Assembly (NCBI GenBank): GCA_963798485.1
Contig: CAWCTR010000021.1
Location: 32,001 to 96,000, forward strand
Source of the DNA: an uncultured delta proteobacterium
Lineage (GTDB): Bacteria; Desulfobacterota; Desulfomonilia; UBA1062
Reading direction: 5' to 3'
DNA length: 64,000 nt
In this document: positions 44,059 through 64,000 of the stretch, in pieces
Position numbering within the stretch: position 1 is the stretch's first letter
How the letters are laid out: each line of letters starts with the position of its first letter
Notes under the pieces: generated by a model
Seen by the model: the letters and a program-made list of their open reading frames with translations, nothing else
The model's database searches: none
What the model was told of the DNA's origin: nothing
Translations under genes and position numbers: made by a program

Positions 44059-44073
44059 TGGCATGCTACTTGC
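44059..44073 (+). promoter_or_regulatory. Sigma54 (-24/-12) promoter
   Basis: TGGCATGCTACTTGC matches TGGCAC-N5-TTGC with exact GG-N10-GC spacing, 46 bp before the SD-preceded ATG 44120; AT-rich upstream DNA. Confidence 0.78.
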
Positions 44074-44119
44074 CCTAGCTATTATCTATAATCGAGCTTG
44101 TGGAAAGGAGGTATTTACC

Positions 44120-48063: not shown

Positions 48064-48732
48064 TTACACCCGGTGGTCTTCACGGATGATGGTGCGGCAG
48101 CCTCCGGACAGGCTTGGACGCCAGTTCTTGGGCGGCCTGATCTCGTTGAGCCGGTCCAGCTGCCCAATATCTTTGAGCCGTTTGTAAATGAGCTGCCAGG
48201 CGCAGGGAAGGCTGGGGTTGACTTCGCACCGGTCTTCACGCGAGCCGCTGCACGGGCCGTTCATCATGTGCTTCGCGCAGCGGGTGACCGGGCAAATGCC
48301 GCCGTAAAGATGGAGCACACACGCGCCGCAGGCCGCACATTTTTCCGTCCAGATACCTCGTTCTTCCAGAATGCCGATGAAGGCGGTATCGAGGCCCGCG
48401 TAAACCGGTTTGTCTGCAAAACGTTCGGCCAGTGCCTGAACGCCGGCACCGCAGCCCAGGGACAGCACGGCGTCGACCTTCATGGCCGCCTCGGCGGCCT
48501 GTTCGAGGAAAACGTTGTCGCACTGGCGTTCTATGGTGAGTTCCTCGACGTCCAGGGGAAGATCATTCAATTTGGCCGCCATGCGTAGCGCCGAGGCGAT
48601 GATGCTGACTTCGCGCTGGCCGCCGGCGAGGCAGACCGTGACGCAGGTGCCGCAGCCGAGTACGAGCACCTTGCGGTGCTTTTCAACGATGGACAATAAG
48701 TCGGGAATGCTTTTTCTTTGAGCAACGATCAT
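48064..48732 (-). CDS. metV: Methylene-THF reductase subunit MetV (MTHFR C-terminal-domain protein)
   Basis: GCGTCVTVCLAGG, ERQC, GCGAGVQ, CAACGAC, GICPVTRCAK, NGPC, CAW; ATGA-coupled to mvhD. Confidence 0.88.
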   Translation of the reverse strand: MIVAQRKSIPDLLSIVEKHRKVLVLGCGTCVTVCLAGGQREVSIIASALRMAAKLNDLPLDVEELTIERQCDNVFLEQAAEAAMKVDAVLSLGCGAGVQALAERFADKPVYAGLDTAFIGILEERGIWTEKCAACGACVLHLYGGICPVTRCAKHMMNGPCSGSREDRCEVNPSLPCAWQLIYKRLKDIGQLDRLNEIRPPKNWRPSLSGGCRTIIREDHRV

Positions 48733-49175
48733 GAGCGACACTCCTGTTTTAATTTGCCGGTGGATTGTATCGGGCTGGGGCCCAGTTTGCGGACCGTTTC
48801 CACCATGTCGATGATGATATCCGCCAGGGGCCGCGCCATGGCGGCGGAAACGTTGACCATGCGGAGGCGTTCCTTTTCCATACCGATCTCATCGAGCATG
48901 TCCCGGATGTAGTTTACCCGGCGTTTGGCGCAGAGGTTGCCTTCGATGAAATGACAGCCCCCTTCGAGACAGCCTGCCACCAGCACGCCGTCCGCGCCGT
49001 TTTCAAATGCCTTCATGAAGTATTCGGTTTCCAGCCGTCCCGTACAGGGGGTGCGGATGATGAGCACGTTTGGCGGGTACTGGATGCGCATGGACCCCGC
49101 CAGATCGGCCGAGGAATAGGCGCAGTAGTGGCAGCAGAAGGCCACGATCTTGGGTTCAAATATGTCGGATTTCAT
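48729..49175 (-). CDS. mvhD: MvhD/FlpD [2Fe-2S] subunit
   Basis: AFCCHYCAYSSADLAG, PCTGR, GADGV, GCLEGGCH; start ATG 49175. Confidence 0.92.
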   Translation of the reverse strand: MKSDIFEPKIVAFCCHYCAYSSADLAGSMRIQYPPNVLIIRTPCTGRLETEYFMKAFENGADGVLVAGCLEGGCHFIEGNLCAKRRVNYIRDMLDEIGMEKERLRMVNVSAAMARPLADIIIDMVETVRKLGPSPIQSTGKLKQECRS

Positions 49176-49186
49176 GGATTGAGCTT

Positions 49187-52100
49187 TTACCTCCCACCAA
49201 TTGCCGAGCAGGCCGTGATTGTACTGTCTTCCCGGTCTTCTCCGAGGTTGCCGGCGAACAGTTCCTTGATCATCACCACAAACTGGTCTGTCTCGAAATG
49301 ATGCAGCTCTATGGCGCAGGCAGGACATTCGGCCGCGCAGATGCCGCAGCCCATACACTTGGCTGCCTCGATCTGCCCCTTGCCGTCCTTGTTGCAGTAG
49401 GGCGCGGAATACGGGCAGACCGTTACGCAGGTCATGCAGGAGATGCACTTTTGCTGGTCCACGTATGAGATCTGGGCGCTGACGTCGAGATGCGTCTTGG
49501 ATAGCACCGTGGCCGCACGCGATGCTGCTGCGCGCGCCTGCGAAATGTTTTCGTCAATGAACTTAGGCGAATGGGCCATGCCGCAGAGGAAAACGCCCTC
49601 GGTCGTAAAATCCACCGGCCGCAGCTTCATGTGCGCTTCCACATAGAAACCGTCGGTGTTGAGCGGCACCTTGAGCATGTCGGATATGCGCTTGTTGTTC
49701 TTAAAGTCCACTTCCACGCCCGTGCTGAGCACGACATTGTCGGCTTCGATCGCGAGCGGTTCGGCGAAGTCCGGGCTCTTGAGCGTGACGACCAAACCGC
49801 CTTCTTCTTTCACCGTCGGCGGCGCCTCGGGCGTGTACCGGATAAAGACCACGCCGGCCTCGCGCGCCTGCTGATAGTAGATTTCCCGGAAACCGTAGGT
49901 CCTCACATCACGGTAGAGAACATATACATTGGCTTGGGGGTCCTCCTTTTTGATGGCCAGCGCGTTTTTAACGGCCATGGAGCAGCAGATGCGGCTGCAA
50001 TAGGGATGCTTTTCGTCGCGCGAACCGACGCACTGGATCATGACGATGTTCTGTCCCAGGGCAGGCCACGACTTCTCATGCAGCCGCTTCTCAAGTTCGA
50101 CCTGCGTCAGAACTTTCTCGGAGCGGCCGTATAGATATTCGCCGGTCCTGGCCGCCTGCGCGCCCGTGGCAACAATGATGGTGCCACCGGTGACCTCCTG
50201 AATTTTGCCACCCTGGTCAAACGACACGTGGAACTTTCCGATGTGGCCTTTGATGCCTGCGACCTCGGCCTGGAGATACGTCTTGATATGGGAATGGTTC
50301 CTGACCTGGTCGATGAGACCGGTGGCGAAGGCGGCGATGTCCGCTTGCTCCAAGGTCCGGTATATATCGTGCAGGGTACCTCCCAGACGATTAGCCTGTT
50401 CGATCAAGTGGACGTCAAACCCCTGGTCGGCGAGCGCCAGCGCGGCTGTCATGCCGGAGAGGCCTCCGCCGATGACGATGCCGGTTTGGTCCACCGTGAG
50501 CGTTCCGCCTTCTAACGGCAAGAGCCTGCGGGCCCGGGCGATTGACATCTTCACGAGCTCAGCCGCCTTAACGGTAGCAGGTTCCGGCTCGGTAGAATGC
50601 ACCCAGGAGCACTGGTCGCGGATGTTTGTCATTTCGAACAGATAAGGGTTCAGGCCTGCTTCGCGGAGCGTCTCGCGGAACAGAGGCTCGTGCGTCCGCG
50701 GGGTGCACGAGGCCACCACGATGCGATTGAGCCGGTGCTGATGGATCATGTCCTTGATGTTCGACAGGCTCGTGTCGGAACAGGTGAACATGGTGTGCGT
50801 CGCTAAAACCACATTCGGCTCATGTTCCACGCGCTTGACCACTTCCTCGACGTCCACCACCGACCCGATGTTCATGCCGCAGTGGCAGACAAACACACCG
50901 AGGCGCGGTTCTTCATCGGTGACATCGTGCTCGATGGGATAGCTCTTTTTGGTGACCAGCGAATTACGGGCCGGCGCGAGCAGTTCCATGGCCATGGACG
51001 CCGCGGCGCTGGCCTGGGTCACGGTCTCGGGAATGTCCTTAGGCTCCTGGAAGGCGCCTCCCACGAACACGCCGGGCCGGGAAGTGCACAACGGCTGGAG
51101 CCGGTCGGTGTCGCAGAAACCGAACTCGTTGAGCTTGATGTTCATACCGGCGGCCATCTCCGCCATGCTGTGCGGCGGCTCCATGCCCACGGACAACACG
51201 ACCAGGTCGAACTCCTTGTGCGAAAGCCCGCCGTTTTCGTCGAAATATGTAAGCTGAAGGTCCTTGCTGCCGGGCAGCTGGACGATCCGCGAGGGGATGC
51301 TCTTGATGTATTGGATGTTGTCCTTGGCCCTGGCGCGCTCGTAATACTGATCGAAATCCTTGCCGTGGGCGCGGATGTCCATGTAGAAAATCGTGGCATC
51401 CAGGCTCTCGACGTGGTCGCCCGTGACGAGCGCCTGCTTGGTGGCCATCATGCAGCAGATGGATGAGCAGTATTCGTTGTTGCACGCCTTGTCGCGCGAA
51501 CCCACGCATTGGATCCAGGCGATGCGCCGGGCCTCGCGCCTGTCCGACAGGCGGATCACATGCCCTTCAAACGGCCCTGCGGCGGACAGCATCCGTTCAT
51601 ACTGGACGGAGGTGACCACGTTGGGATAGCGGCCGTAGCCGAACTCACCTTTAAGCGATGCATCGAACTCGTCAAAGCCCGGGGTCAGGATGACCGAGCC
51701 AACTTCGAGGGTGATTGTCCGTTCTTGCATGGCGTGGTCAATGGCGTTCTGCTTGCAGGTATCGACGCACCGGTTGCATTCCGAGCACAGGGCGCAATTG
51801 AGACACCGCTCGGCCTCAGAAAGGGCCTGCTCTTCGGTGAGCCCTTTCTCAACCTCGTCGAAATTCCTTAGACGGATGGAGGGCGAGAGCTCTTCCGGGC
51901 GAGGACGTGATCTTTTCTCGACCTTGTCGAGTTCAGGCAGGAGTTCTTCGGGAAGAGGGCTTAAGCTTTCCTCAAACCGGCCGCCGAGCAGATCCGTGCC
52001 CTTCAGATACCTCTCGATGGACTCGGCCACCCGTTTACCCGCGGCCACGGCATCGATCACGGAAGCTGGACCGCTCGTATTGTCGCCGCCTGCAAAAATG

Positions 52101-53686
52101 CTCTCAATGGACGTCTGCCCGGTCACCGGATCGGCCTTGAAACAGCCGCGCTCGGTCTGGACGCTGATGTGACTCACGGTCTGCTCGTCCACCATCTGTC
52201 CGATGGCCACGATGATCTGGTCGGCATCGATGGTGGTGAGAGCGTTTTCGTCAAAGGCCGGGCTGAAGCGTTTTTTCTCGTCGAAGACCCGGGTGCAGCG
52301 TTTGAGCTCGATGCCGGTGACTTTTCCGTTGCCGAGGATGCGCTTTGGGCCCCAGCCGTTACGGATCTTGATGTTTTCCGCGAGGGTGGCCTCGATCTCC
52401 TCTTCGTAGGCGGGCATCTCGTGGGGTCCTTCGAGGCAGACCATCTCGACATTTCTTGCGCCCAGGCGTAGCGCGGTACGGGCCACGTCGATGGCCACGT
52501 TGCCGCCGCCGATGACCAGCACCCGTTCCTTCACCTCGGGTTTATTGGCCGAAGCCGCTTCTCTTAAGAATTCTACGCCGTGCAGGACGCCCTCGATGTC
52601 CTCGCCTTGAACGCCGAGTTTGCGGCTCTTCTGGGCGCCGGCCGAAATGAAGATGGCTGCATAATCATTGCGCAGCGTCTGGAAGGTGACGTCCTGGCCG
52701 ATGCGGCAGCCATAGATGAACCTGACGCCCTTGCGGCGGATGATTTCGATCTCGTGGTCGAGCACCTTCTTGGGCAGGCGATACTCTGGGATCCCGTATC
52801 GGAGCATGCCGCCGGCTGCGGGCATGGCTTCGTAAACCGTGACGGCAAACCCTGCGTCAGCAAGATCATTGGCTGCTGTAAGCCCGGCCGGGCCGCCACC
52901 GATGATCGCGACCTTCTTGGCATCGGGTGCGATTACCTTTTCCTCCGGCAGAGCCAGATCGCCCGCCGCGAGCATCTCCATTTCCCTGTCCGATGCGAAG
53001 CGCTTCAACAGCCGGATGGCGATAGGGGCGTCGGCACCCGCCCTCGTGCATTCACTCTCGCAGGGATGGGTGCAGATGCGGCCGCAGATGGCCGAAAGCG
53101 GGTTCCTCTGACGGATGAGCTCTACCGCCTTGACATATTCCTTCTGCTTGATGAGCTGGACGTAGCCCTGGACGTTCACCCTGGCCGGGCATGTCATTTT
53201 GCAGGGAGAATGGCCGTTTTTAAGGATGCCGAAAATGTTCGGGGTGGCCTGGGCGTAAAGCTTTGCAATGCCCTTGCGGGTTCCCAGGCAGCGGTTGAAC
53301 TCGTCCGGGATGTCTACGGGGCAGACTAAAGTGCATTCGCTGCATCCGGTGCATTTGTCCTCGTACACAAACCGCGGATACCGCTTGACTCTTGCCCTGA
53401 AACGGCCCGGCCCGCCTTCGAGGCCCACCAGTTCGGAAAGCGTCAGAATCTCTATATTCAGGTTCCGCGCGCATTCGACGAGCTTGGGCGAGACGATGCA
53501 GGTGGCGCAGTCGCCGGTCGGGAAGGTCTTGTCCAGATGCGCCATCATACCCCCGATGGCTGCGTCGCGCTCGACGAGATACACCTTGAAGCCACTGTTT
53601 GCCAGATCGAGCGATGCCTGTACGCCGGCAATGCCGCCGCCCTGCACCAGCACCGCGCCGATTTTCTTGTCGTCCGATCTACTCAT
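49187..53686 (-). CDS. hdrA: Large HdrA-like flavoprotein with inserted GltD/NfnB-like pyridine-nucleotide module (HdrL type)
   Basis: GGGIAG..LDKTFPTGDC, two QCVGSR..CS..CCM HdrA repeats, ferredoxin motifs; insert PCKMTCP, ICGRICTHPCE, GGGPAG, GGMLRYGIPEYRLP, GGGNVA. Confidence 0.92.
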   Translation of the reverse strand: MSRSDDKKIGAVLVQGGGIAGVQASLDLANSGFKVYLVERDAAIGGMMAHLDKTFPTGDCATCIVSPKLVECARNLNIEILTLSELVGLEGGPGRFRARVKRYPRFVYEDKCTGCSECTLVCPVDIPDEFNRCLGTRKGIAKLYAQATPNIFGILKNGHSPCKMTCPARVNVQGYVQLIKQKEYVKAVELIRQRNPLSAICGRICTHPCESECTRAGADAPIAIRLLKRFASDREMEMLAAGDLALPEEKVIAPDAKKVAIIGGGPAGLTAANDLADAGFAVTVYEAMPAAGGMLRYGIPEYRLPKKVLDHEIEIIRRKGVRFIYGCRIGQDVTFQTLRNDYAAIFISAGAQKSRKLGVQGEDIEGVLHGVEFLREAASANKPEVKERVLVIGGGNVAIDVARTALRLGARNVEMVCLEGPHEMPAYEEEIEATLAENIKIRNGWGPKRILGNGKVTGIELKRCTRVFDEKKRFSPAFDENALTTIDADQIIVAIGQMVDEQTVSHISVQTERGCFKADPVTGQTSIESIFAGGDNTSGPASVIDAVAAGKRVAESIERYLKGTDLLGGRFEESLSPLPEELLPELDKVEKRSRPRPEELSPSIRLRNFDEVEKGLTEEQALSEAERCLNCALCSECNRCVDTCKQNAIDHAMQERTITLEVGSVILTPGFDEFDASLKGEFGYGRYPNVVTSVQYERMLSAAGPFEGHVIRLSDRREARRIAWIQCVGSRDKACNNEYCSSICCMMATKQALVTGDHVESLDATIFYMDIRAHGKDFDQYYERARAKDNIQYIKSIPSRIVQLPGSKDLQLTYFDENGGLSHKEFDLVVLSVGMEPPHSMAEMAAGMNIKLNEFGFCDTDRLQPLCTSRPGVFVGGAFQEPKDIPETVTQASAAASMAMELLAPARNSLVTKKSYPIEHDVTDEEPRLGVFVCHCGMNIGSVVDVEEVVKRVEHEPNVVLATHTMFTCSDTSLSNIKDMIHQHRLNRIVVASCTPRTHEPLFRETLREAGLNPYLFEMTNIRDQCSWVHSTEPEPATVKAAELVKMSIARARRLLPLEGGTLTVDQTGIVIGGGLSGMTAALALADQGFDVHLIEQANRLGGTLHDIYRTLEQADIAAFATGLIDQVRNHSHIKTYLQAEVAGIKGHIGKFHVSFDQGGKIQEVTGGTIIVATGAQAARTGEYLYGRSEKVLTQVELEKRLHEKSWPALGQNIVMIQCVGSRDEKHPYCSRICCSMAVKNALAIKKEDPQANVYVLYRDVRTYGFREIYYQQAREAGVVFIRYTPEAPPTVKEEGGLVVTLKSPDFAEPLAIEADNVVLSTGVEVDFKNNKRISDMLKVPLNTDGFYVEAHMKLRPVDFTTEGVFLCGMAHSPKFIDENISQARAAASRAATVLSKTHLDVSAQISYVDQQKCISCMTCVTVCPYSAPYCNKDGKGQIEAAKCMGCGICAAECPACAIELHHFETDQFVVMIKELFAGNLGEDREDSTITACSAIGGR

Positions 53687-54557
53687 GGCTGTTTACTTCC
53701 ATTTTATTTAAGACGTTTTCAGCGGGGACCATCAGCTTTTCAAACCCGAGCTCGCTCGCGTCAAGTCCCAGGCAAAGCCCGAGGAGCTGGGTGATGTAAA
53801 TCACCGGCATACGGTAGTTCCTGCCCATCTCTTTGTTGATGTCCTGCTGCCGCACATCGAGGTTGATCTGGCACATGGGGCAGCTGACCGCGATGCACTC
53901 CGCGCCCACCTGGACGGCCATGTCGATAATGGACTCGGTGAGCCTGAGCACCACGTCGGTCCGTGACAGCGACAAACTGCCGCCGCAGCAATCGACCTTG
54001 CAGGGCCATTCGAGGCTGAGGCCGCCCATAGCGGTCACCAGACGGTCGAGCGACTTCGGATTTTCCGCATCATCGAACCTGAGAATCTCCGGCGGCCGGA
54101 CCAGAAGGCAGCCGTAGTAGCAGGCAACCTTGAGGCCGTTAAGCGTTCTTTTGAGGGACTTGGTGATGGTCGGCAGGCCGACATCTTCGAGGAGCACCTC
54201 AAGGAGGTGGCGGACCTTGACGGAGCCGTCGTAATCCCTATCGAGCGCGTCACGTACATCCCTGCGGACCTCGGCGTGGGTGGAAATCTCGTGGTTGGCC
54301 ACCTTCATCCTATTGTAGCAGGCGGCACAGTTGACGACCATGTCCAGGTTCATGTCCTGGACCTTGGTCAGGTTGGCGGCGGGCAGTGCAACGGCGAGCA
54401 GGCGGTCGGTCTGGTGGCCGGCGGTGGCGCCGCAGCAGGTCCAGCCTTTGGGTTCCTCGAAATCGAGCTTAAGCGCCCGTGCGACCGCATACGTGGACTG
54501 GTTCATGTCGCGGGCCGTGGATTCTGCCGAGCATCCGGGATAGTAGGCGTATTTCAT
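53679..54557 (-). CDS. hdrB: Heterodisulfide reductase subunit B
   Basis: YYPGC, WTCCG, CAACY, YYGCLL, DCCG, CPMCQ. Confidence 0.93.
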   Translation of the reverse strand: MKYAYYPGCSAESTARDMNQSTYAVARALKLDFEEPKGWTCCGATAGHQTDRLLAVALPAANLTKVQDMNLDMVVNCAACYNRMKVANHEISTHAEVRRDVRDALDRDYDGSVKVRHLLEVLLEDVGLPTITKSLKRTLNGLKVACYYGCLLVRPPEILRFDDAENPKSLDRLVTAMGGLSLEWPCKVDCCGGSLSLSRTDVVLRLTESIIDMAVQVGAECIAVSCPMCQINLDVRQQDINKEMGRNYRMPVIYITQLLGLCLGLDASELGFEKLMVPAENVLNKMEVNSHE

Positions 54558-55120
54558 GCTCGGGTTCCTCGTTTTTGTTTTGCGTTCTTGAAAATGCGTC
54601 TCACGGTTTTCCTGTCGCCTTCCATGGGAGGCAGCAGCGCAATTTTTCCCTTCTTCAGCATGGCCGGGAATTTTTCCGTATCTTCCATCAGTTTGCCCGT
54701 GCCGATCTTGTAGGCTGTGATCATGGCGATATCGTAGGGGCGGCCGAAGATCTCGACCGTCTTCAAGAATGCGCGGTTGAACAGCGGCATATCGCCTTGA
54801 GGTTTCGGCGCGCCCCGATCTAAGGCCAGAGAGCGCAGCGAGTCCATGACAGAAGCCACGTCAATACCCATGGGGCAGCGGGCCGAGCAGGTTTCGCACG
54901 AGGCGCACAGCCAGATGAGGTCGCACTCGAGCAGTTCCTCACCGGCGCTGAGGTGCAGCATCCGCATGATTTCCGACGGCCTGGTTGTGGCCAGCTTTGC
55001 CACCGGACAGCCGCTCGAGCATTTCTTGCACTGTAAACAGACGCTCAGGTTCACGCCGGCCAGCTTCTCGACGGCATTCTTCAGACCATGGCCTATCCTT
55101 GCTTTTTTGATGGTTAGCAC
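54554..55120 (-). CDS. hdrC: Heterodisulfide reductase subunit C
   Basis: CLQCKKCSSGCP, IWLCASCETCSARCP. Confidence 0.92.
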   Translation of the reverse strand: MLTIKKARIGHGLKNAVEKLAGVNLSVCLQCKKCSSGCPVAKLATTRPSEIMRMLHLSAGEELLECDLIWLCASCETCSARCPMGIDVASVMDSLRSLALDRGAPKPQGDMPLFNRAFLKTVEIFGRPYDIAMITAYKIGTGKLMEDTEKFPAMLKKGKIALLPPMEGDRKTVRRIFKNAKQKRGTRA

Positions 55121-55139: not shown

Positions 55140-57797
55140 TCATGCCAGTTCTTCAACTGTTTCTTCAGCCCGGACATCGTCGGTGTCCTCCAGGACAATA
55201 TCCTTGATGTTGCCGGGGACAACCTTGCGATACACCCGGCACGGTTTGAGCTGCTTGCCGTTCACGGTTAAAAGTTCCTTGACGGTTATCCCGAAATGTT
55301 TCTGGTTTTCCTCCAAAAACGGCAGGATCAGCTCCCAGTCGGCGTCGGTCACCTTGGCAAACTGGCCGCTGTTCAACTGCTGGTCCACCAGGGTCTTTCC
55401 CGGGTCACGGACAAAAATGGCGCCGCCCGAAGCCAGCGAAAACAGGTTGCTGCCCGGGTAAGGATCAACAAGCGGAACAGGTTTCCCTTCGTCGTCGAGC
55501 TTGACGCCGTTCAGGATCACGAAGCCGCCGCCGTTAAGCGGGTCGCCGGCCATGAAGGACTCGGCGAGAAAGTCGAGGCAGGTGCCGTTGATGACTACCT
55601 TGGGCCGTCCCACGGAGTTTATGAGCGGTCGTCCCGCTGCGTTGCCGAGCACATAGACCTCGCCGCCCTTGGCGCCGTACATGAAGGTCTGGCCCACGTC
55701 GCCATGAATGACCATTTTCCCCTGCTTGACGATCTGACCCAACTGGTCCTGGGCGTTGCCGTGCACCGTGATCGTCAGCCCGTCAATGCCCGAACCGAGA
55801 TAGTCGCCGCTGCTGCCGTACACGTCGATGAGAACACCCTCGGTTTCCGGACCGAGGCCGCAGCCGGTGTACCGCTGGCCGATGCAATTGAAGCAGATGA
55901 AACGGCGCCAGCCTAACATAAAAGCGTCAACCAGCAGCGCGGCGTCACAGTCATCTCCTTCTGGTGGAAACTGGGCAGCGTCGATCACCAGCGTGGTTTC
56001 CATGCCTTGCGGCCCTCGAAGGTGTCCGCGCGACATGAAATCAACCAGGCGATACGCGCCCTTTGCGGCATCCTTGTCGCTTATTTTGGGGAGGCTCGAG
56101 AAAAGCCGGCTCAGCGCGGTGCGCACGATGTGGAGCACATGGCTGCGTCTCTTCGCGCCGGTCGAGTAACGCCGGTCATTGAGCAGCGTCAGGACTTCTA
56201 TCGACGTGGCCGTCTTGGAAGGGTCCTTCGCCTGATTGATGATCTGCCGGCACGCCAGATCGATCTCGTCAAACGTCGATTCGGGTATGAGGTCGCGTAT
56301 CATTTCAAAAATCGTGACGCTGTTGCCGGGCACAAATCTCTCGCTGATTATTGTCTGTATAGTCTCCCTCGATTCGGAGGATACTGAAAATTCCTTGGAA
56401 AAATCGAACGACTCGGTGCCGCCAGGCATAGCGACCTGCGTACCGAATTTGTCCGTGCAAGTGATCCGGATTTTGCCGGCCGGATCTTTTTTCAGGTTGA
56501 AAATGAACGCCCCGCCGTCGTCATAGCTGCCACCGCGCGCGTTCCAGTAGCGGTCCGCAACGGGGCAGATCCGTTTATCATCCTTTGACAGGCTCATGAG
56601 TGTGGCATCAATGGCCTGTTTTTCCGAGGCGATCAGCCCCACCTGGACAACGCCATCGGTAAAGGCGAACACTTGGGGTCGCAGCATGGCGGTGTCGGTG
56701 ATGCCCATCAACTGGAACTGCCGCTGGCGGGCGAGGCTGCGGGCTATGATGAAGAACCAGGGGCCGTCGGGCGAGCCGTGCATGTGGGTGGCCTGGATGG
56801 CCCGGTAAACCTTCTGCTTTTCAAGGCCGAGCCGGTCGAAGTCAAGTTCCGTGGTCGGCGCCAGGGCTTCGATGATGTATTCCAGCGGGTAGTGGTAGGT
56901 CCTGCTGAGCAGGTCGAACAGCTGCGCGGACACTTCCGTATCGGTGAGAAACTGGGGATAGATATGGCGCTGTTTGAGATATTCGGTAACCGAATGGTAG
57001 TTGGCAAAGTCGCCGTTGTGCACCAGCGCCATGTCAATGGCAGCGAACGGATGGGCGCCGCCGGGGTGCCAGACACGACCCTTGGTGGGGAAACGCTGGT
57101 GGGCGATCCAAACGTGGGCGCACAGGTCCTCGATCTTGTAATACTTCACGATGGCCTCGGCATAGCCGACCACCTTGAGGATCATGATGTCCCTGCCGTG
57201 CGAGAGCACGAAGGCGCGTTTTTCGCCCAGGGACGCGTAATACTTCTGATTGAGGCTGAAGCTGTTCTGGCTGACGAATTCGTCCTCCGCCGCATCGCTC
57301 TCGAGCGCCTGCAGATTGTTCTTTTCGATGAACTCGCCCAGCACTTCCGGCTTGACGCGGACAAAGTATCGGCAAACATCCGGGGGGAGCACCTCGAGGC
57401 CCGGCACGGTCTTCCAATCCTCCATCTTGTCGAACTGCGCGGAGGCGGCAACGTCGAAGAAAGGCTTGATGAACTCCTCCTCGATTTCCGGACGCAAAGA
57501 AGTGTCGATGAAGGCTACATTCAGCAGGTAATAGTTGTCGAGCACCTCTCTGCTGACGCCGAGTTGCTCCGGGACGAGCCCCACCGCGGCGATTCCGCCT
57601 CCCTTGCCGTTCCCACGGTTGTGCATCTGGCGCGACGGCTCGTAAATGTGCCGGCCCGCCACCGGCTCGCTGCAGCAGAAACCGACCACGCCGCAGCCGC
57701 CTTCCTCCGCCTCCTTCCGAAGGATCGGGGGTAACCTGAGACTCTCAGCGAGCCTTTTTCTTGAACCGGTCAGCTTCTGGATCAATTCAGTGTTCAT
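55140..57797 (-). CDS. Glutamate synthase-like GATase-II domain fused to GXGXG domain (GltB1+GltB3)
   Basis: EEGGCGVVG Ntn cysteine, RGNGKGGG, HQRFPT, AHPF, VHNGD, TDTE; C-terminal GSSGDYLG, GNAQDQ, GNAAGR, ASGG repeats. Confidence 0.88.
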   Translation of the reverse strand: MNTELIQKLTGSRKRLAESLRLPPILRKEAEEGGCGVVGFCCSEPVAGRHIYEPSRQMHNRGNGKGGGIAAVGLVPEQLGVSREVLDNYYLLNVAFIDTSLRPEIEEEFIKPFFDVAASAQFDKMEDWKTVPGLEVLPPDVCRYFVRVKPEVLGEFIEKNNLQALESDAAEDEFVSQNSFSLNQKYYASLGEKRAFVLSHGRDIMILKVVGYAEAIVKYYKIEDLCAHVWIAHQRFPTKGRVWHPGGAHPFAAIDMALVHNGDFANYHSVTEYLKQRHIYPQFLTDTEVSAQLFDLLSRTYHYPLEYIIEALAPTTELDFDRLGLEKQKVYRAIQATHMHGSPDGPWFFIIARSLARQRQFQLMGITDTAMLRPQVFAFTDGVVQVGLIASEKQAIDATLMSLSKDDKRICPVADRYWNARGGSYDDGGAFIFNLKKDPAGKIRITCTDKFGTQVAMPGGTESFDFSKEFSVSSESRETIQTIISERFVPGNSVTIFEMIRDLIPESTFDEIDLACRQIINQAKDPSKTATSIEVLTLLNDRRYSTGAKRRSHVLHIVRTALSRLFSSLPKISDKDAAKGAYRLVDFMSRGHLRGPQGMETTLVIDAAQFPPEGDDCDAALLVDAFMLGWRRFICFNCIGQRYTGCGLGPETEGVLIDVYGSSGDYLGSGIDGLTITVHGNAQDQLGQIVKQGKMVIHGDVGQTFMYGAKGGEVYVLGNAAGRPLINSVGRPKVVINGTCLDFLAESFMAGDPLNGGGFVILNGVKLDDEGKPVPLVDPYPGSNLFSLASGGAIFVRDPGKTLVDQQLNSGQFAKVTDADWELILPFLEENQKHFGITVKELLTVNGKQLKPCRVYRKVVPGNIKDIVLEDTDDVRAEETVEELA

Positions 57798-59362
57798 TTT
57801 TCTGTCGTTCCCTCGTTGGTGTAATCCAAATGTATCATGAGGTCGGTGCGTCCGCGCAGCTCGCTCACGCTCTTGAGGCCGAGGCGCTTAAGAATTTTGA
57901 TCAGCGTTTTCTGCCAGGCGCTGTAAAGGTTGATGAGACGCTGGGCGCCCCATTCAGTAGTCATTTTGGCGGCAAGCACGGGGTCGGTCGTGGCGATGCC
58001 ACGCGGGCAGCCCCGCCCGCTCTCGCAGCGGCTGCAACGAACACAGCCCAGCGCCACCATTTCCGCGGTCCCGATGACCACCCCGTCCGCGCCCAAGGCG
58101 ATGGCCTTGGCGATGTCGTGGGCCGTGCGGATCCCGCCGCTGGCGATCAGCGTCACCTTGTCGCGGACGCCCTCGTCTGTAAGGAAATTGTGCACCTTGC
58201 CGATGGCGTATTCGATGGGCATGGCGATGTTCTTCTTGGCGATGTCCGGCGCCGCGCCGGTCCCGCCATAACCGCCGTCGATGTGGACGATGTGCGTGCC
58301 GGCGGAATAGCTCCCCACAGCCACCATGTCCACGTCCGTCGGGGTTGAAACCTTCGTCGAGATCAAGGCGCGCCGGTTCACGTGCTTGATCCATTCAATG
58401 TGCTTGGCGTGGTCTTCGATGGAATAGACGCTGTGGAACGGGAACGGGGAGAACAGGGAGATGCCGAGCACCGCCTCGCGCATGCGGGCCACGACGACGG
58501 TGTTTTTGTCGCCGAGCAGATGGCCGCCCAGGCCGGGCTTGGCGCCCTGGGCATACTTGAATTCCACGATGGGTACCCGCTGGATGGTTTCCTCGCGCAC
58601 GCCGAACAGGCCTGTGGCGACCTGTGTGATGACGTGGTCGTCATACGGTCGCATGCGTTCCATGTAGCCGCCCTCTCCTGTGCAGGTAAACGTGTTGAAC
58701 GCCACGCACGCCCGGGCCTTTGAAAGCTGGGTTACGTTGCTCACCGAGCCGAACGACATTCCGCCGCCGTACCAGGGAACGTCAATTTTGATTTCGGGTC
58801 GGCCGTCGCCGCGCTTGTTCAGCGAGATGCTCGTGTCGATCTCGCTCTCGTCGAGCAGGGCGGGCGGTTTGTCCGGGAATTTGAACCGGAGCCGGTCAAA
58901 GCCGCCGCCGGAATTGCCGCATTCGTAGTTGTAATCGTAGGCCTCATCCGGCACATCTCCGGTCTCGGCCATCTTCCATGTGGCCAAGATCAGATCCGCG
59001 GTCCAGCGATAATCGCCGAGCGCGGTGAACATGGGATTTTCCCGGATCGACAAGGCCCCTTGAGGGCAATGGGCCACGCAATACTTATCCGTCTTTTCGC
59101 AGGAAGGCCCGATGCACAGGTGATGCTCGGGCTCGCCGAAATATTTAAACCCGGGTTTGTGGACGTGGACGCCGTAGGAGCAGACCTCCACGCACTTGCC
59201 GCAACGTTTGCAATCCAAACTGCGGTGGACGATGTACTTGGCAATTTCGTTGCGATAGCGGGACGGCGCTGGTTTGACGAGGCGCTGCACCTGCTCCTGC
59301 GGCACGCGCGTCTTCAGCGTGTTCTCAGGCAGAATGTCCTCAAGACGGCTTTCTTTTTCCAT
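57794..59362 (-). CDS. Glutamate synthase FMN-binding subunit with N-terminal ferredoxin (GltB2)
   Basis: CKRCGKCVEVC, GGMSFGS, TGEGG, EFKYAQGAKPGLGGHL, GGTGAAP, ASGGIR, CVRCSRC..CPRGIAT; start ATG 59362. Confidence 0.92.
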   Translation of the reverse strand: MEKESRLEDILPENTLKTRVPQEQVQRLVKPAPSRYRNEIAKYIVHRSLDCKRCGKCVEVCSYGVHVHKPGFKYFGEPEHHLCIGPSCEKTDKYCVAHCPQGALSIRENPMFTALGDYRWTADLILATWKMAETGDVPDEAYDYNYECGNSGGGFDRLRFKFPDKPPALLDESEIDTSISLNKRGDGRPEIKIDVPWYGGGMSFGSVSNVTQLSKARACVAFNTFTCTGEGGYMERMRPYDDHVITQVATGLFGVREETIQRVPIVEFKYAQGAKPGLGGHLLGDKNTVVVARMREAVLGISLFSPFPFHSVYSIEDHAKHIEWIKHVNRRALISTKVSTPTDVDMVAVGSYSAGTHIVHIDGGYGGTGAAPDIAKKNIAMPIEYAIGKVHNFLTDEGVRDKVTLIASGGIRTAHDIAKAIALGADGVVIGTAEMVALGCVRCSRCESGRGCPRGIATTDPVLAAKMTTEWGAQRLINLYSAWQKTLIKILKRLGLKSVSELRGRTDLMIHLDYTNEGTTEK

Positions 59363-60734
59363 AGAGCCTGCCAAAGGTCTCCTCCTCGAGGTTCTCGAAA
59401 AACATGGCGCGGCCGACCTCGCCCCGCAGGCGACGGGCCTCGCGCATGCCCATGGCACCCATCAGTTCGATCAACTGGTCGTGCCATGCCGCGATCAGGT
59501 TCGTCATCCGGCCCACACCGTAGTTGAAATCGATTTCCTGAAGCCTGGCCGGACACGGCGACCCGGGCTCGCAACTGTTACACAGATGACATTCAAGCGC
59601 GATCATAAGCGGCAGGTTGATGGTAACCAGGTCGGCACCGCAGATGATGGCCTTGGCCATGTGCTCCGGCAGCGCGATACCGCCTCCGGCCATGAGCGTG
59701 ATTTCATCCCGGATGCCCCTCTCGATGAGCGCGGTATGAATCTGACGGATCATGTCCTTTATAAACCGCGGCTTTTTCGCCAAGAGTTCATTGCCGTCGG
59801 CATCGGAAACGAGGTGGATCACTTCAATCTCTTCCAGAGCGGCCAGATCTATGGCGCGGCCGATTCCCGCATCGGTCAGTTCCATCCGGATGGCTACGAC
59901 AATTTCCGGGTGGATTTTTTTGATTTCCCTGATGCGCTCCGCCACGGCGGGGCTGTCGGCGATTTCCACCAGGCGGGTTTTTTTCAGCAACGCATCCGGC
60001 ACGCTCGGGCTATCCGGGCCAAGATAAAACGCGATGTTCTCCAGGTGGGCGTCACTGGACGGCCGGTATTTTGAGTCCATAAGGGCGATCAGGCCGGTGT
60101 CGGCGGCGGTCTGTTCGATGATCGGGTCAAGCTTCGGCAGCGTGTGCGCTGGCGAACTCAAATCAAGGATCAACGGCATCGGAAGCGAGACCAGCGGCGG
60201 CAAGGCCGTTGATTTGTTTCCATTCACCACCAGAAACGGCGGCTTGCGGCCGATGTCGACCGAAGTGCTGATGTATTCCCGCCCGTGAATGCCGTCGCGG
60301 GTCGGGCGGACAATCTCCGACATGTCCGTCCACATGGAATCGAAGCCCTGGCCGGAAAACGGCCCCCGGTAGCCTGCGCCGGAAACCGGAATTTTTGCGG
60401 TTTCGGCCTGAAGCCATGTCGTTTTGATGATATCGGGTTTCCAATAACTGTTCCCGAGCTTTTCATACTCCGGGTTTACTGAAAGGCGCAAGATGCCTTT
60501 GGTGCAGTCCTGCACGCAGGAAAAACAACCCATGCAGTCAAAAAACAATGCCTCTACATCGCTTAAGTTGCGGATGTATTCCGCCTCCTGTCTGTAGCGG
60601 TCATAGACACAGGCCTTTTTAACGCAGTTATGACACCGGGCGCAGTCTTCCCGCCAGTCCACCACTCCATGTTTGCCTATGCGCGGCCGCAACGGCGGAA
60701 CCGGCTGGGTCTTGATGTGATATTTCTCCGGCAT
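59340..60734 (-). CDS. Degenerate glutamate synthase FMN-domain paralog with ferredoxin domain
   Basis: CARCHNCVKKAC, CMGCFSCVQDC, AGGGI, GAD, CHLCNSC..CP; lacks MSFG, TGEGG and QGAKPG. Confidence 0.78.
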   Translation of the reverse strand: MPEKYHIKTQPVPPLRPRIGKHGVVDWREDCARCHNCVKKACVYDRYRQEAEYIRNLSDVEALFFDCMGCFSCVQDCTKGILRLSVNPEYEKLGNSYWKPDIIKTTWLQAETAKIPVSGAGYRGPFSGQGFDSMWTDMSEIVRPTRDGIHGREYISTSVDIGRKPPFLVVNGNKSTALPPLVSLPMPLILDLSSPAHTLPKLDPIIEQTAADTGLIALMDSKYRPSSDAHLENIAFYLGPDSPSVPDALLKKTRLVEIADSPAVAERIREIKKIHPEIVVAIRMELTDAGIGRAIDLAALEEIEVIHLVSDADGNELLAKKPRFIKDMIRQIHTALIERGIRDEITLMAGGGIALPEHMAKAIICGADLVTINLPLMIALECHLCNSCEPGSPCPARLQEIDFNYGVGRMTNLIAAWHDQLIELMGAMGMREARRLRGEVGRAMFFENLEEETFGRLYGKRKPS

Positions 60735-60749
60735 AATCTCTCCAAGCGC

Positions 60750-61649
60750 CTACAGTCCGGAAGCGGCGACCAATTCGGGCACAATTGCTTCCTTGCCGCC
60801 CGAAAGGATGTGTATTCCGCGCAAACCAGTAAGCGCCTTGAGCTGCTTGATGGTTTCAGCGCAAATAGCCAAGCCTTCCTTCTTACCGGCATCGCCTGCT
60901 TTTTCCAGCCGTTCAATGACTTCGTCCGGAATACGGAATTCGGCATACGTATTGCGGAGTTTTTGGGCTTCCGTTACACTTTCCAAGGGATATACACCGG
61001 CCAAGATGGCGGCCTTTTTGGTGATGCCTTCCTTGCGGGCGGCGTCGAGCCAAAGGCCAAAGGACTGGATGTCAAACACCGCATGAGTCTGAATGAACCT
61101 GGCGCCGGCTTCGACTTTTTTACCCAGCCTGAACAGGTTAAGTTCCAGCGGTTTCATGAATGGATTTACCACCGCACCCACCAGCATCGAAAACTGCCCG
61201 TCTATGCCGGTTCCGTCGGCCAGCACGCCGTTTTCGGTCATCCGGTTGGCCAACTCGATTAACTGAATGGAATCGATATCATATACATTAACTGATTCCG
61301 GACATCCGATCAGTGTCTGATGATAACCGGACATGCAGAGCACATTCTTGATTCCCAGGCTGGCGGCCCCCAGCAGATCGGACTGTAACGCGATGCGATT
61401 CCGGTCGCGGGTGACCATTTGAAGGACCGGTTCAACACCCAATCTCATCGCTGCCGCGGATGCGGCCATCGACGACAGCGCCACGCCGTGTGAATTGTCA
61501 GCCATGCCCACGGCCACCGGTTTGCCGCCAAAATACTTCAAAGCCGCTTCAACGGTTGCGCCTGATGCAGTGGCGCCGGGCGCACACTCAGCGGTGACGA
61601 TAAAATCTCCCGTCTCGATTTTTTTTGCGAGTTTGCTGTCGACTTTCAT
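60750..61649 (-). CDS. metF: MetF-like flavoprotein (methylene-THF reductase family, atypical active site)
   Basis: VTAE, RDRNRIALQSDLLGA, KKVEAGA, GIHI; SGYH and QTH in place of SGDH and QTQ. Confidence 0.85.
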   Translation of the reverse strand: MKVDSKLAKKIETGDFIVTAECAPGATASGATVEAALKYFGGKPVAVGMADNSHGVALSSMAASAAAMRLGVEPVLQMVTRDRNRIALQSDLLGAASLGIKNVLCMSGYHQTLIGCPESVNVYDIDSIQLIELANRMTENGVLADGTGIDGQFSMLVGAVVNPFMKPLELNLFRLGKKVEAGARFIQTHAVFDIQSFGLWLDAARKEGITKKAAILAGVYPLESVTEAQKLRNTYAEFRIPDEVIERLEKAGDAGKKEGLAICAETIKQLKALTGLRGIHILSGGKEAIVPELVAASGL

Positions 61650-61663: not shown

Positions 61664-62086
61664 CTATTTGTTGGCGGCGCCGCTTCGAGCATACGTCGGG
61701 GGTAGAGTTCTTAGGCGTTCAATGAACTGTTTGATTTCGCCGAGGACTTCTCCGGCGTCGGGTTTCCCGCACTCAAAAACGGCCATCCGGCCCGCGGCCA
61801 CGCCGATTTCATCCAGCAGCGCTTCAACGGCCTCGGCGCGTTTGCGCGCCCGCAGATTGCCCTCGAAGTGGCGACACTCGTTCTTTTTGCAGGTCACAAT
61901 CGCCACACCGTCCGCACCTGTTTCAAAGGATTTAATCAAATAAGGGATATCCACCTTTCCGGAACAGGGCAGACTGATGATCTTGATCGTATCGCCATCG
62001 TGTATAGTGCATAAACCCGAAAACTGGCTTGCTTCAAGATTGTTTGAGCAATAAAAAATATAAGTTTTCAACGCCTGATTGTTCAT
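61664..62086 (-). CDS. Second MvhD/FlpD-like [2Fe-2S] protein
   Basis: FYC, LPCSGKV, GADGV, TCKKNECRH; four Cys at MvhD-like spacing. Confidence 0.85.
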   Translation of the reverse strand: MNNQALKTYIFYCSNNLEASQFSGLCTIHDGDTIKIISLPCSGKVDIPYLIKSFETGADGVAIVTCKKNECRHFEGNLRARKRAEAVEALLDEIGVAAGRMAVFECGKPDAGEVLGEIKQFIERLRTLPPTYARSGAANK

Positions 62087-62352: not shown

Positions 62353-64000
62353 CTACTTATAGCTGTCTTTATGCACATCCTTGACCGCCCGGCCTGACGG
62401 GTCGATCATATTGGCAAACTGGGCATCCCACTTGATGGCCGTAGGTGTGGAACAGGCTACCGAAGGCCCTTCAGGTACGCAGCGGGCGGCACTGTCCAGT
62501 GGAAAGAATTCCTGGAAGATTGACCGGTAATAATATCCCTCTTTGGTGACGGGTGTATTGATGGGGAAACGGAAACGGGCGTTTTCCATCTGCGTATCGC
62601 TGACCATTTTCTCAGCCACCTCGCGAAGGGTATCGATCCAGTTGTAACCCACGCCGTCGGAAAACTGTTCTTTCTGGCGCCAGGCAACCTCGGATGGCAG
62701 ATAATCCTCGAATGCCTTTCTTAAGATATGTTTCTCCATACGGCCATCCTTGCACATCTTGTCTTCCGGGTTGAGGCGCATGGCAACGTCCATGAATTCT
62801 TTGTCCAGGAAAGGTACCCTGCCTTCCACACCCCAGGCGGCCAGAGACTTGTTGGCGCGCAGACAGTCATATTTGCTGAGCATGGAGAGTTTGCGCACGG
62901 TTTCTTCGTGAAGCTCTTTAGCATCGGGCGCCTTGTGGAAATACAGATAACCGCCGAAGATTTCGTCTGCCCCTTCACCGGAGAGCACCATCTTGACCCC
63001 CATGGACTTGATCTTGCGGGACATCAGATACATGGGAGTGGAAGCCCTGATCGTGGTAACATCGTAGGTTTCTATGTGGTATATCACGTCGCGCACGGCA
63101 TCCAGGCCTTCCTGGATGGTGAAGGTGAAATTATGGTGAATGGAGCCGATATGGTCGGCCACCTTCTGGGCTGCCGCCAGATCCGGTGAACCGTCCAGGC
63201 CGATGGCAAAGGAGTGCAGCTGGGGCCACCAGGCATCCTTCAAGCCGCTGGTCTCAACGCGCTTGGCCGAATACTTCTTTGCAACGGCCGCAGTAATCGA
63301 ACTGTCCAAACCGCCTGAAAGCAGCACACCGTACGGCACGTCGGACATCAGTTGGCGTTCCACCGCCTCTTCCAGCGCCCGTCTGAGATCTTTTATGCTG
63401 CTTTTGTTGTCTTTGACATTGTCATATTCCATCCAGTCCCGCTTGTAATATTCCTTTGGGGAGCCGTCTTTGCTGTAGAGATAATGCCCGGGAGGAAATT
63501 CGCTTACCGTGTTGCACACCCCAATCAGGCCCTTCATTTCAGAAGCCACATAGAAATTGCCGTGCTCGTCGTAACCGGTATACAAGGGACAAATTCCGAT
63601 ATGGTCGCGGCCGATCATGTAGACATCGTTCTGGCTGTCATAGAGAGCAAAGGCAAAGATTCCGTTCAGGTCTTCCAGAAAATCAATGCCCTTCTGGCAA
63701 TAAAGGGCCAGAATGATCTCACAGTCCGATTCGGTCAGAAAATTATAAGGTTCTCTCAAGGTCTTCTTGAGATCCTTATGATTATAGATCTCACCGTTGA
63801 CCGCCAAGGCTACCTTGCCGTCAGGGGTGTAAAGCGGCTGGGCTCCCTTGTTGACATCAACAATTGAAAGCCGCTCATGGGCCAGAATGGCCTTTTCATT
63901 TACATAGATGCCGCTCCAGTCCGGTCCGCGATGCCGCATCGTGCGACTCATCTCCAGGGCCTGGGACCGGAGTTCCTTCACATCTGTCTTGATATCAAAA
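62353..64000 (-). CDS. asnB: Asparagine synthetase B (glutamine-hydrolysing), start beyond window end
   Basis: HRGPDWSG, HERLSIVD, NGEIYNH, LLSGGLDSS, SGEGADEIFGGY, RVPFLD, WRQKEQFSDG; frame open to window edge and N-terminal Cys not seen. Confidence 0.96.
   Translation of the reverse strand, partial: FDIKTDVKELRSQALEMSRTMRHRGPDWSGIYVNEKAILAHERLSIVDVNKGAQPLYTPDGKVALAVNGEIYNHKDLKKTLREPYNFLTESDCEIILALYCQKGIDFLEDLNGIFAFALYDSQNDVYMIGRDHIGICPLYTGYDEHGNFYVASEMKGLIGVCNTVSEFPPGHYLYSKDGSPKEYYKRDWMEYDNVKDNKSSIKDLRRALEEAVERQLMSDVPYGVLLSGGLDSSITAAVAKKYSAKRVETSGLKDAWWPQLHSFAIGLDGSPDLAAAQKVADHIGSIHHNFTFTIQEGLDAVRDVIYHIETYDVTTIRASTPMYLMSRKIKSMGVKMVLSGEGADEIFGGYLYFHKAPDAKELHEETVRKLSMLSKYDCLRANKSLAAWGVEGRVPFLDKEFMDVAMRLNPEDKMCKDGRMEKHILRKAFEDYLPSEVAWRQKEQFSDGVGYNWIDTLREVAEKMVSDTQMENARFRFPINTPVTKEGYYYRSIFQEFFPLDSAARCVPEGPSVACSTPTAIKWDAQFANMIDPSGRAVKDVHKDSYK

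Follow-up and report, generated by a model that had tools for sequence, protein, structure and literature searches.

We analysed a 64,000-nucleotide (nt) stretch of DNA, hereafter the window, from an uncultured delta proteobacterium (GenBank assembly GCA_963798485.1, contig CAWCTR010000021.1, positions 32,001 to 96,000 of the forward strand) and focused on a divergent paralog of the methylenetetrahydrofolate reductase (MTHFR) gene metF, here called metF*. The gene lies in a widespread, tightly packed ten-gene operon on the minus strand, in the order mvhD1-metF*-gltX1-gltX2-gltX3-hdrC-hdrB-hdrL-mvhD2-metV, which combines heterodisulfide reductase (Hdr)-type subunits with a split glutamate synthase (Glt). 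Sequence comparisons lead us to suggest, with moderate confidence, that MetF* is a MetF-fold flavoprotein that has given up methylene-tetrahydrofolate (THF) reduction and would serve as an electron-transfer or scaffold subunit of an Hdr-wired glutamate synthase. The protein is probably mis-annotated as an MTHFR and would have a different job. We propose that the ten-gene unit may represent the Moorella-type ('type IV') MetFV-HdrABC-MvhD module joined in function to a split, glutamine-dependent glutamate synthase.

The gene and the three codons on which the argument turns are as follows.

metF*, positions 60750..61649, minus strand: 299-amino acid (aa) MTHFR-family paralog with an ATG start and an open frame; second gene of the operon.
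Glu21 codon GAG, positions 61587..61589, minus strand: position of the E. coli MetF catalytic acid Glu28; retained.
Tyr109 codon TAT, positions 61323..61325, minus strand: position of E. coli MetF Asp120.
His189 codon CAT, positions 61083..61085, minus strand: position of E. coli MetF Gln183.

An earlier note on this DNA, made by eye, had named four motifs and placed substitutions at two folate-binding positions. All four motifs were present in the translation (TAE at residues 19-21, RDRNR at 81-85, CMSGYH at 105-110 and FIQTH at 185-189), and the placement of Tyr109 and His189 at the pterin-contact positions Asp120 and Gln183 was confirmed in alignments by three methods that agree. Using phmmer against PDB chains, residues 154-281 of MetF* matched E. 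coli MetF 148-274, ungapped around TQ/TH and with His189 opposite Gln183, while ...CMSG fell opposite human ...ALRG, whose final residue precedes the Asp. A MAFFT alignment with E. coli K-12 MetF (L083) paired E28 with E21, D120 with Y109 and Q183 with H189; Phe223, which stacks on the p-aminobenzoate ring, fell opposite Leu231 in a gapped part of this alignment. In a 93-sequence profile, the family consensus 'cltGdhq' corresponded to human 'ALRGDP' and 'FiqTq' to human 'FIITQ'. TAT is a single base from an Asp codon and CAT a single base from a Gln codon. The RDRNR block is at least 90% conserved across the MetVF-type family.

In E. coli MetF, Glu28, Asp120, Gln183 and Phe223 are listed as the four residues essential to catalysis in the relevant part of PMC11868366. 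The mutant data excerpted from PMC11094777 show that Asp120 makes bidentate contact with pterin N3 and the exocyclic NH2 (D120N has 0.3% of kcat and a Km raised >40-fold), that Gln183 makes bidentate contact with pterin N8-H and N1 (Q183A/E raise Km >250-fold) and that Glu28Gln leaves 0.01%.

The overall fold appears to be intact. MetF* matched Pfam PF02219 (MTHFR) over residues 7-296 (E-value (E) 4.9e-26, 92.2 bits compared to a cut-off of 24) and reached none of the NCBIfam MTHFR equivalog cut-offs (best 157.8 versus 453). An AlphaFold (AF2) model had a predicted local distance difference test score (pLDDT) of 95.5 and a predicted template modelling score (pTM) of 0.93, and its best listed Foldseek matches in the PDB were all MTHFRs (E down to 2e-16, TMq 0.70-0.75). 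Neither phmmer nor the 93-sequence profile found a MetVF-type structure among the PDB chains. Together, the profile matches and the model indicate an intact MTHFR-family triosephosphate isomerase (TIM)-barrel protein, predicted to form a (beta-alpha)8 barrel like the solved MTHFRs.

To relate the substitutions to gene context, we grouped loci by context alone and read at each the triad corresponding to E28/D120/Q183 (E. coli numbering). All 83 loci with MetV directly upstream of MetF had the canonical E/D/Q triad (60 without and 23 with gltX1 downstream), compared to only 1 of 34 loci (L142) with gltX1 downstream and without MetV directly upstream; the latter group includes the window, and MvhD lay directly upstream in 32 of its members. 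The 33 non-canonical triads in this Hdr-Glt context were 19 EYH, one YH whose N-terminus is cut, 5 EHQ, 2 EEQ and single cases of EYQ, EYN, EDD, ENE, QDQ and AMD. In other contexts, 68 loci comprised 37 E/D/Q, 30 E/D/N and one cut sequence. Triad loss goes with an MvhD gene where MetV would otherwise stand directly upstream of MetF, and Tyr/His is one form of a wider triad degeneracy that appears once MvhD separates MetV and MetF and Hdr and Glt share an operon. Triad residues vary among sister lineages that have this operon in common, a pattern that points to loss of the old site rather than to one new substrate. Linkage to Glt alone was not accompanied by triad loss, as 23 of 23 mvhD-metV-metF-gltX1-3 loci were canonical. 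Accordingly, the co-occurrence of Tyr/His variants with glt genes raised in the earlier note stood with one correction: all such variants with readable flanks were followed by glt genes, but the association is not specific to the variant, being shared by these 23 canonical MetFs. The tie between triad degeneracy and gene context is new here, and it yields a simple rule in which MvhD instead of MetV upstream, together with gltX1 downstream, marks the non-canonical form (E/D/Q lacking at 33 of 34 loci compared to 0 of 83).

Two other groups emerged from this survey. The 30 E/D/N relatives (L169-L217), with Asn at the Gln183 position, had neither MetV directly upstream nor glt genes and were mostly from Rhodobacterales and other Alphaproteobacteria (Leisingera, Ruegeria, Defluviimonas, Albidovulum and others). 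The 23 canonical Glt-linked loci (L028, positions 8886-17262, and 22 further) formed a six-gene unit, mvhD-metV-metF-gltX1-gltX2-gltX3, with no Hdr genes within 10 kb. At L028 the unit follows carAB, argS, an amino-acid kinase gene and glnA, and eight of the 23 (L028, L045, L046, L049, L058, L060, L064 and L071) lie beside glnA, carA, amt/glnD or a second GOGAT. These six-gene relatives suggest a direct link of a real methylene/methyl-THF enzyme to glutamate synthase.

Conservation along the protein was mixed. Across 74 canonical MetFs, 80 positions are invariant to at least 97%. Of these, 33 MetFs of the Hdr-Glt type keep 40 at a level of 90% or more; 21 are intermediate and 19 fall below 50%. 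Kept invariants include Glu21, Asp51, RDRNR, Gly108, Pro163, Lys178 and Thr188; Asp120 and Gln183 are among those lost, as is the beta8 stretch, which reads IMAIEWE in the canonical MetFs displayed and is replaced by ILSGGKE. A further comparison found 18 positions at least 85% conserved within the core MetF* clade and within the canonical tier (40-46% identical to MetF*) that nevertheless differ between the two, including Y109, H189, A190, E227, L282, S283, G284, K286 and N171. Beyond D120, Q183 and F223, these positions probably line the folate pocket, judging from the E. coli structures. The ratio of MetF to MetV divergence had a median of 1.76 in the Hdr-Glt type (interquartile range 1.66-1.90; 55 pairs, 11 genomes) compared to 0.85 in the MetV-adjacent type (0.76-0.95; 150 random pairs, 73 loci), a trend among non-independent kin that suggests faster evolution of MetF* relative to MetV than is the case for canonical MetF.

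The organism has a canonical metF as well. Its genome contains two PF02219 matches, the second of which, on contig C10, scored 301 bits versus 90 bits for MetF* and carries the canonical motifs FEFFP, ALRGD and IITQ; G+C content (GC) was 0.494 for C10 and 0.496 for the contig with metF*. This agrees with the earlier note, which had called metF* a paralog and suggested looking for a canonical metF elsewhere. All five other carrier genomes tested likewise had another MTHFR-family gene, three of them canonical (~295-303 bits) and two found as longer frames of 636 and 661 aa. In two carrier genomes (L097/L110, G001:C2:575963-577279; L098/L109, G005:C3:38020-39186), a MetV match and a partial MTHFR match fell within one frame (519 and 823 aa), which may encode a fused MetF-MetV.

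Tyr and His occurred together in 117 of the 120 closest proteins from a collection of 5.8 billion (77-100% identical), which shows that the pair is not due to chance or sequencing error; of the other three, one had Tyr with Gln and two had Tyr with the second motif missed by the regular expression. After clustering at 50% identity, the sole full-length match listed above 50% beyond the cluster of MetF* itself (P0001) was P0121 (63%), accompanied by short fragments, and the other full-length proteins listed were at most 45% identical. Sources that name the close homologs label them 'methylenetetrahydrofolate reductase', in most cases '(NADPH)'. A scan for relative loci with MetF* kept 80, including 21 close loci (L003-L023; 56-88% identical) from metagenome-assembled genomes (MAGs) of Verrucomicrobiota, Planctomycetota, Leptospirales and 'delta proteobacterium'. 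The MetF* frame was intact in all 21 loci, as it was in the 120 database proteins closest to it. Counting the window's own genome, 4 of 15 genomes of its genus have a protein with at least 78% identity.

Phylogenies placed the Tyr/His variants in a clade apart from Wood-Ljungdahl-type MetF; like the other computational checks proposed in the earlier note, this one came out in favour of its reading. FastTree gave the core MetF* clade (23 sequences) a support of 1.0. IQ-TREE (LG+G4, 83 sequences) gave 22 core sequences an ultrafast bootstrap (UFBoot) of 86 and their union with P0126 and P0130, both of which keep Asp, a UFBoot of 100; the Tyr-bearing P0127/L111 formed a separate lineage within a wider clade (UFBoot 88). 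We considered P0127/L111 as a direct sister sharing one Asp-to-Tyr event and rejected it, since FastTree support was only 0.175 and IQ-TREE places P0126/P0130 as the sister (UFBoot 100) and P0127/L111 elsewhere. Tyr at position 109 may thus have had either one origin or two.

The operon consists, besides metF*, of the following genes.

mvhD1, positions 61664..62086, minus strand: divergent FlpD/MvhD, 140 aa; Pfam FlpD E 9e-26.
gltX1, positions 59340..60734, minus strand: 464 aa with a Fer4_9 N-terminus; Pfam Glu_synthase E 1.8e-13 over residues 329-430.
gltX2, positions 57794..59458, minus strand: Fer4 and a full glutamate-synthase flavin mononucleotide (FMN) domain; Pfam Glu_synthase E 3.5e-90.
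gltX3, positions 55140..57797, minus strand: 885 aa; Pfam GXGXG E 2.8e-15 and a weak GATase_6 (class-II amidotransferase) match, E 6.9e-7.
hdrC, positions 54554..55120, minus strand: NCBIfam CoB-CoM heterodisulfide reductase subunit C, E 9.8e-17, below the curated cut-off; Pfam Fer4_17.
hdrB, positions 53679..54557, minus strand: Pfam CCG in two stretches; NCBIfam HdrB E 2.9e-58, below the cut-off.
hdrL, positions 49187..53686, minus strand: 1499-aa HdrA-type protein with a GltD-like NAD(P)H/flavin adenine dinucleotide (FAD) insert; NCBIfam HdrA2 E 4.8e-289 and several GltD families.
mvhD2, positions 48729..49166, minus strand: typical FlpD/MvhD; Pfam FlpD E 2e-48.
metV, positions 48064..48732, minus strand: MetV-type Fe-S partner of MetF; PF12225 E 8.4e-37; last gene of the operon.

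Gaps of 14 nt on the mvhD1 side and 15 nt on the gltX1 side separate metF* from its neighbours. Its partner gene metV, whose product is 76-85% identical to six counterparts, sits eight genes away. That mvhD1 abuts metF* had suggested an operon without MetV, a reading rejected on the PF12225 match at 48064-48732 and on the presence of MetV after hdrL in 5 of 5 other genomes. MvhD1 scored 91 bits for FlpD compared to 164 bits for MvhD2 and lacks the CCxxC present at the start of MvhD2; its Cys13, 41, 66 and 71 are kept in 20-21 of the 21 close loci. GltX1, which is 62-89% identical across all 21 close loci, has just the C-terminal portion of the glutamate-synthase FMN domain. GltX2 shares 38% identity with E. 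coli GltB 907-1173, and both QGAKPGxGG and the Cys-rich stretch are part of this match. The longest gltX2 frame opens with GTG and overlaps gltX1 by 119 nt, and the first ~30 residues look unlike protein; because of this overlap the true start is probably further down, an internal Met (MEKESRLED...) being likelier. Residues 155-562 of HdrL are 30% identical to E. coli GltD, and HdrA-GltD fusions are known as 'HdrL' in the part of PMC2702500 from which the name is taken and as type III HdrA in that of PMC12054007 concerned with such proteins.

Gene content and order were well preserved across the close loci. GltX1 followed MetF* in 21 of 21, with gltX2 present in 19, gltX3 in 17, hdrB and hdrL in 17 and hdrC in 16. 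The four loci without hdrB and hdrL end at a contig end (L011, L012 and L014) or at the end of the fetched stretch (L007), and L020 lacks only gltX3 and hdrC. MetV followed hdrL-mvhD2 in all five other carrier genomes tested. Relatives found with P0126 include three loci (L147, L152 and L155) that hold all ten genes in the rotated order gltX3-hdrC-hdrB-hdrL-mvhD2-metV-mvhD1-metF-gltX1-gltX2, an order also seen in the parts held by L156 (a 9-kb contig, hdrC to gltX1) and by the shorter L020. The ten-gene operon is thus conserved. In the same P0126 scan, L147, L152, L155 and L156 carried His/Gln at the two pterin positions, and L141-L146 and L148, with the same operon order, carried Asp/Asp, Asp/Gln, Glu/Gln, Asn/Glu or Met/Asp, two of them without Glu28. 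The His/Gln locus L155 comes from a MAG assigned to Desulfosudis oleivorans. The scan with P0127 returned L111 as MvhD-MetF(Tyr/Asn)-GltX1-3. By comparison, SGDHQ- and QTQ-type motifs were present in every one of the 59 loci with 40-46% identity (Desulfobacterales, Dehalococcoidia, Atribacterota and others), with metV directly upstream of metF in nearly all.

The surroundings point to nitrogen metabolism, and the operon is set among nitrogen-assimilation genes. Four neighbours within the window are the following.

asnB, positions 62353..63981, minus strand: glutamine-hydrolysing asparagine synthase, upstream neighbour; Pfam Asn_synthase E 1.9e-91.
GAF/sigma-54 activator, positions 46474..48012, plus strand: NifA-like domain order (Pfam GAF, Sigma54_activat, HTH_8), convergent with the operon end.
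P-II protein, positions 46097..46435, plus strand: Pfam P-II.
Amino-acid permease fused to a P-II domain, positions 44039..46051, plus strand: Pfam AA_permease and P-II.

The sigma-54 promoter pattern TGGC-N8-TGC had no match in 62087-62352, and the window as a whole held 13 matches compared to 11.5 expected. Over the 18 kb past the window end (L091, contig positions 96001-114000) lie genes for an ACT-domain protein, for GlnD and Amt and for a second GAF-sigma54 activator, followed by a complete split glutamate synthase, GlnA and CarA. Three proteins make up this second split synthase: one of 376 aa that matches no Pfam family, a Fer4-FMN subunit of 544 aa and a GXGXG-GltD fusion of 778 aa. 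The genome thus encodes two systems for glutamate synthesis, and an activator of its own stands beside each. Further genes precede the nitrogen cluster in the window, in the stretches 39566-40759 (minus strand), 33628-36291 (plus strand) and 41625-42911 (plus strand): an HdrD-like protein (Fer4 and CCG), two acyl-CoA dehydrogenase-family genes, a short-chain dehydrogenase and an iron-containing alcohol dehydrogenase.

The operon (48064-62086) has a GC of 58.8% (0.59-0.80 at third codon positions) compared to 48.9% for the rest of the window; across 14-kb windows of the genome the mean was 50.7% (standard deviation 3.6), and only 1.8% were as GC-rich. In both FastTree and IQ-TREE, the window's MetF* copy nests among Verrucomicrobiota copies. 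The GC, the presence in 4 of 15 genomes of the genus and this nesting fit horizontal transfer of the whole unit, which looks like a mobile accessory module.

How such a unit might work can be sketched from domain content and from published type IV MTHFR and MetVF enzymes, from which we infer the electron path; flavin retention, complex formation, glutamate synthase activity and loss of MTHFR activity are likewise inferred. NAD(P)H would be oxidised at the GltD-like insert of HdrL, and electrons would travel through the HdrA-type flavin and an Fe-S chain (MvhD1/2, MetV and the Fer4 domains of GltX1/X2) to the FMN of GltX2, which would reduce 2-iminoglutarate to glutamate. The 2-iminoglutarate would form from 2-oxoglutarate and ammonia freed from glutamine by GltX3. 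Ferredoxin or an HdrBC substrate might also take up electrons as a second acceptor, and the flavin would then be bifurcating. The former folate pocket of MetF* would have been remodelled through Tyr109, His189 and further pocket changes, and its flavin would be kept as an internal electron-transfer or two-electron/one-electron (2e/1e)-buffering cofactor, or else MetF* may be merely a scaffold for MetV. More tentatively, the ten-gene unit might be a bifurcating glutamate synthase, in which the energy drop from NAD(P)H to 2-oxoglutarate and glutamine reduces a low-potential acceptor and MetF* provides a non-folate flavin site (a 2e/1e converter or the site of a second half-reaction); the canonical six-gene relatives (mvhD-metV-metF-gltX1-3, beside glnA) would then be a methyl-THF/methylene-THF-linked glutamate synthase.

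Our preference for a relay or scaffold role for MetF* comes from the differing triad residues of sister lineages that share the operon; these differences, the two lineages without Glu and the faster evolution of MetF* relative to MetV suggest loss of the old catalytic constraint over a single new specificity. Several observations weigh against this interpretation. Of the 33 readable triads, 31 retain Glu21, for which a pure relay has no obvious need. The strictness of Tyr/His in the core clade (117 of 120) also fits a new specific function, and a Tyr hydroxyl and a His could hydrogen-bond a pterin. The E/D/Q MetFVs linked to the same glt trio in 23 loci imply a real folate-glutamate synthase link in relatives. 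Physical association of the ten proteins is suggested by synteny alone, and the rate comparison, with only 11 Hdr-Glt genomes, describes a trend and is not a test. CdhC/AcsB is present in the window's genome and was found in none of the five other carrier genomes, whose completeness was not given. CdhC in this genome had also raised the idea that MetF* is the Wood-Ljungdahl MTHFR of this organism, which we set aside as weakened by the finding of CdhC in none of those five genomes, the canonical metF and the presence in only 4 of 15 genomes of the genus; the Hdr-Glt operon appears not to be tied to the Wood-Ljungdahl pathway.

It is less likely that MetF* is instead an active enzyme whose remodelled pocket (Tyr109, His189, Ala190, Glu227, Leu282-Ser283-Gly284 and Lys286) binds a non-folate hydride donor or acceptor over the flavin, as a second catalytic site of the Hdr-Glt complex serving, for example, the second acceptor or donor of a bifurcating reaction. 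The 18 positions conserved within each clade yet differing between core and canonical sequences speak for such an enzyme, as do the near-universal Tyr/His pair among the closest homologs, the retained Glu21 and the Tyr of the separate lineage P0127/L111, which has the same MvhD-MetF-GltX context; moreover, the section of PMC8760232 on type IV MTHFR complexes describes their second acceptor as unknown. Yet lineages with the same operon carry H/Q, D/Q, D/D, E/Q and N/E, and L145 and L148 have lost the Glu, so that no new motif is common to the family. MetF* also evolves faster against MetV than canonical MetF does, the data suggest no candidate substrate, and the assignment of the divergent positions to the pocket lining is tentative, save for D120, Q183 and F223. 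We similarly doubt that MetF* is still a methylene-THF reductase in which Tyr and His bind the pterin, with folate redox coupled to glutamate synthesis and Hdr-type bifurcation. Its score above the Pfam MTHFR cut-off with an intact fold, the kept Glu21 and 40 of 80 canonical invariants, MetV in the operon, the canonical sister architecture in 23 of 23 loci and CdhC/AcsB in this genome are all compatible with that view. Against it stand the severe effects of the E. coli substitutions excerpted from PMC11094777 (0.3% kcat for D120N, Km up >250-fold at Q183), the E/D/Q triad in only 1 of 34 loci of this operon type, CdhC found in 0 of 5 other carriers, the separate canonical metF and the replaced beta8 motif IMAIEWE.

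That MetF* is a decaying remnant without a role, simply carried in the operon, is very improbable. Half of the canonical invariants are no longer invariant and divergence is faster than in MetV, but the frame is intact in 21 close loci and the 120 closest proteins, the close loci are 56-88% identical across phyla, the other 40 of the 80 invariants are kept, the model has high confidence and the spacing is tight (14 and 15 nt). We also considered a methylene-tetrahydromethanopterin reductase, for which the pterin ring contacts would need no change, and an N-methylglutamate-synthase-like enzyme for the glt trio, against which GltX2 is nearer to GltB and the neighbouring glnA and GlnD fit GOGAT. 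The broader claim of the earlier note, that this is not a canonical MTHFR but a flavin relay or an enzyme for another substrate within a Glt-Hdr complex, is supported; between its two options we only lean, towards relay or scaffold.

If MetF* homologs do not turn over folate, one-carbon and Wood-Ljungdahl inferences would be wrong for many MAGs from peat, wetland and sediment, in groups such as Verrucomicrobiota, Planctomycetota, Chloroflexota and Desulfobacterota. For anaerobes short of energy, the operon could provide a so far undescribed means of driving nitrogen assimilation. It is relevant, too, to the long-standing puzzle of which second acceptor type IV MTHFR/Hdr complexes use, and it offers a natural experiment on the fate of a MetF barrel after its folate site has been given up. 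A full-text search, which does not reach subscription journals or supplements, found no published MetF-glutamate synthase-Hdr cluster and no Tyr/His MetF variants.

Among known systems, E. coli MetF (type I, FAD, NADH-dependent; PDB 1ZP4 and 3FST) shares the (beta-alpha)8 fold (Foldseek TMq 0.70-0.73) and the equivalent of Glu28. It differs in sequence (16-18% identity by Foldseek) and at Asp120 (Tyr in MetF*), Gln183 (His) and, in the gapped part of the alignment, Phe223 (Leu), and MetF* belongs to the MetV-dependent branch, whose characterised members, as presented in the portion of PMC8760232 on this branch, bind FMN and do not use NAD(P)H. That portion describes MetVF as having FMN in MetF and two [4Fe-4S] clusters in MetV, with no use of NAD(P)H. 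Type II MetVF of Clostridium ljungdahlii and other acetogens (parts of PMC8760232 and PMC8515935) has, like the window, a ~300-aa MetF with a MetV partner, and MetV-adjacent relatives and the Hdr-Glt type have RDRNR and 40 of the 80 family invariants in common; here, in contrast, metF* stands apart from metV, has lost both triad and beta8 motif and lies inside an Hdr-glutamate synthase operon. The flavin-free Mfr and the F420-dependent Mer are TIM-barrel reductases that share a Glu at position A, according to the comparison excerpted from PMC11094777. In that comparison these unrelated enzymes carry an acid where E. coli MetF has Asp120 and a Gln where it has Gln183, whereas MetF* has neither.

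Bacterial GltBD and split archaeal-type glutamate synthases have in common with this unit an FMN domain, a GltD-like reductase, a GATase-like part, GXGXG and a nitrogen neighbourhood. They differ in that GltD is here inserted in an HdrA protein, a degenerate FMN-domain protein (GltX1) is added, the amidotransferase match is weak and MetF*, MetV, two MvhD proteins and HdrBC share the operon. The type IV MTHFR of Moorella thermoacetica, MetFV-HdrCBA-MvhD (Mock et al. 2014, as cited in sections of PMC8760232 and PMC5736913), encodes MetF, MetV, HdrA-type, HdrB, HdrC and MvhD in one cluster, and all six kinds occur here; in the sections consulted, it too has an HdrA-type protein with an NAD(P)H-binding part, and the second acceptor is unknown in both. 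For Moorella and Acetobacterium MetF we used Desulfofundulus and Desulfovirgula relatives with an hdr-mvhD-metV-metF order (L149-L151 and L170), all of which had SGDHQ and IQTQ. Compared to the Moorella cluster, the unit in the window adds three glutamate-synthase genes and a second MvhD, sets MetF* apart from MetV, carries Tyr and His in place of Asp120 and Gln183 and occurs in other genomes in which CdhC was found in 0 of 5.

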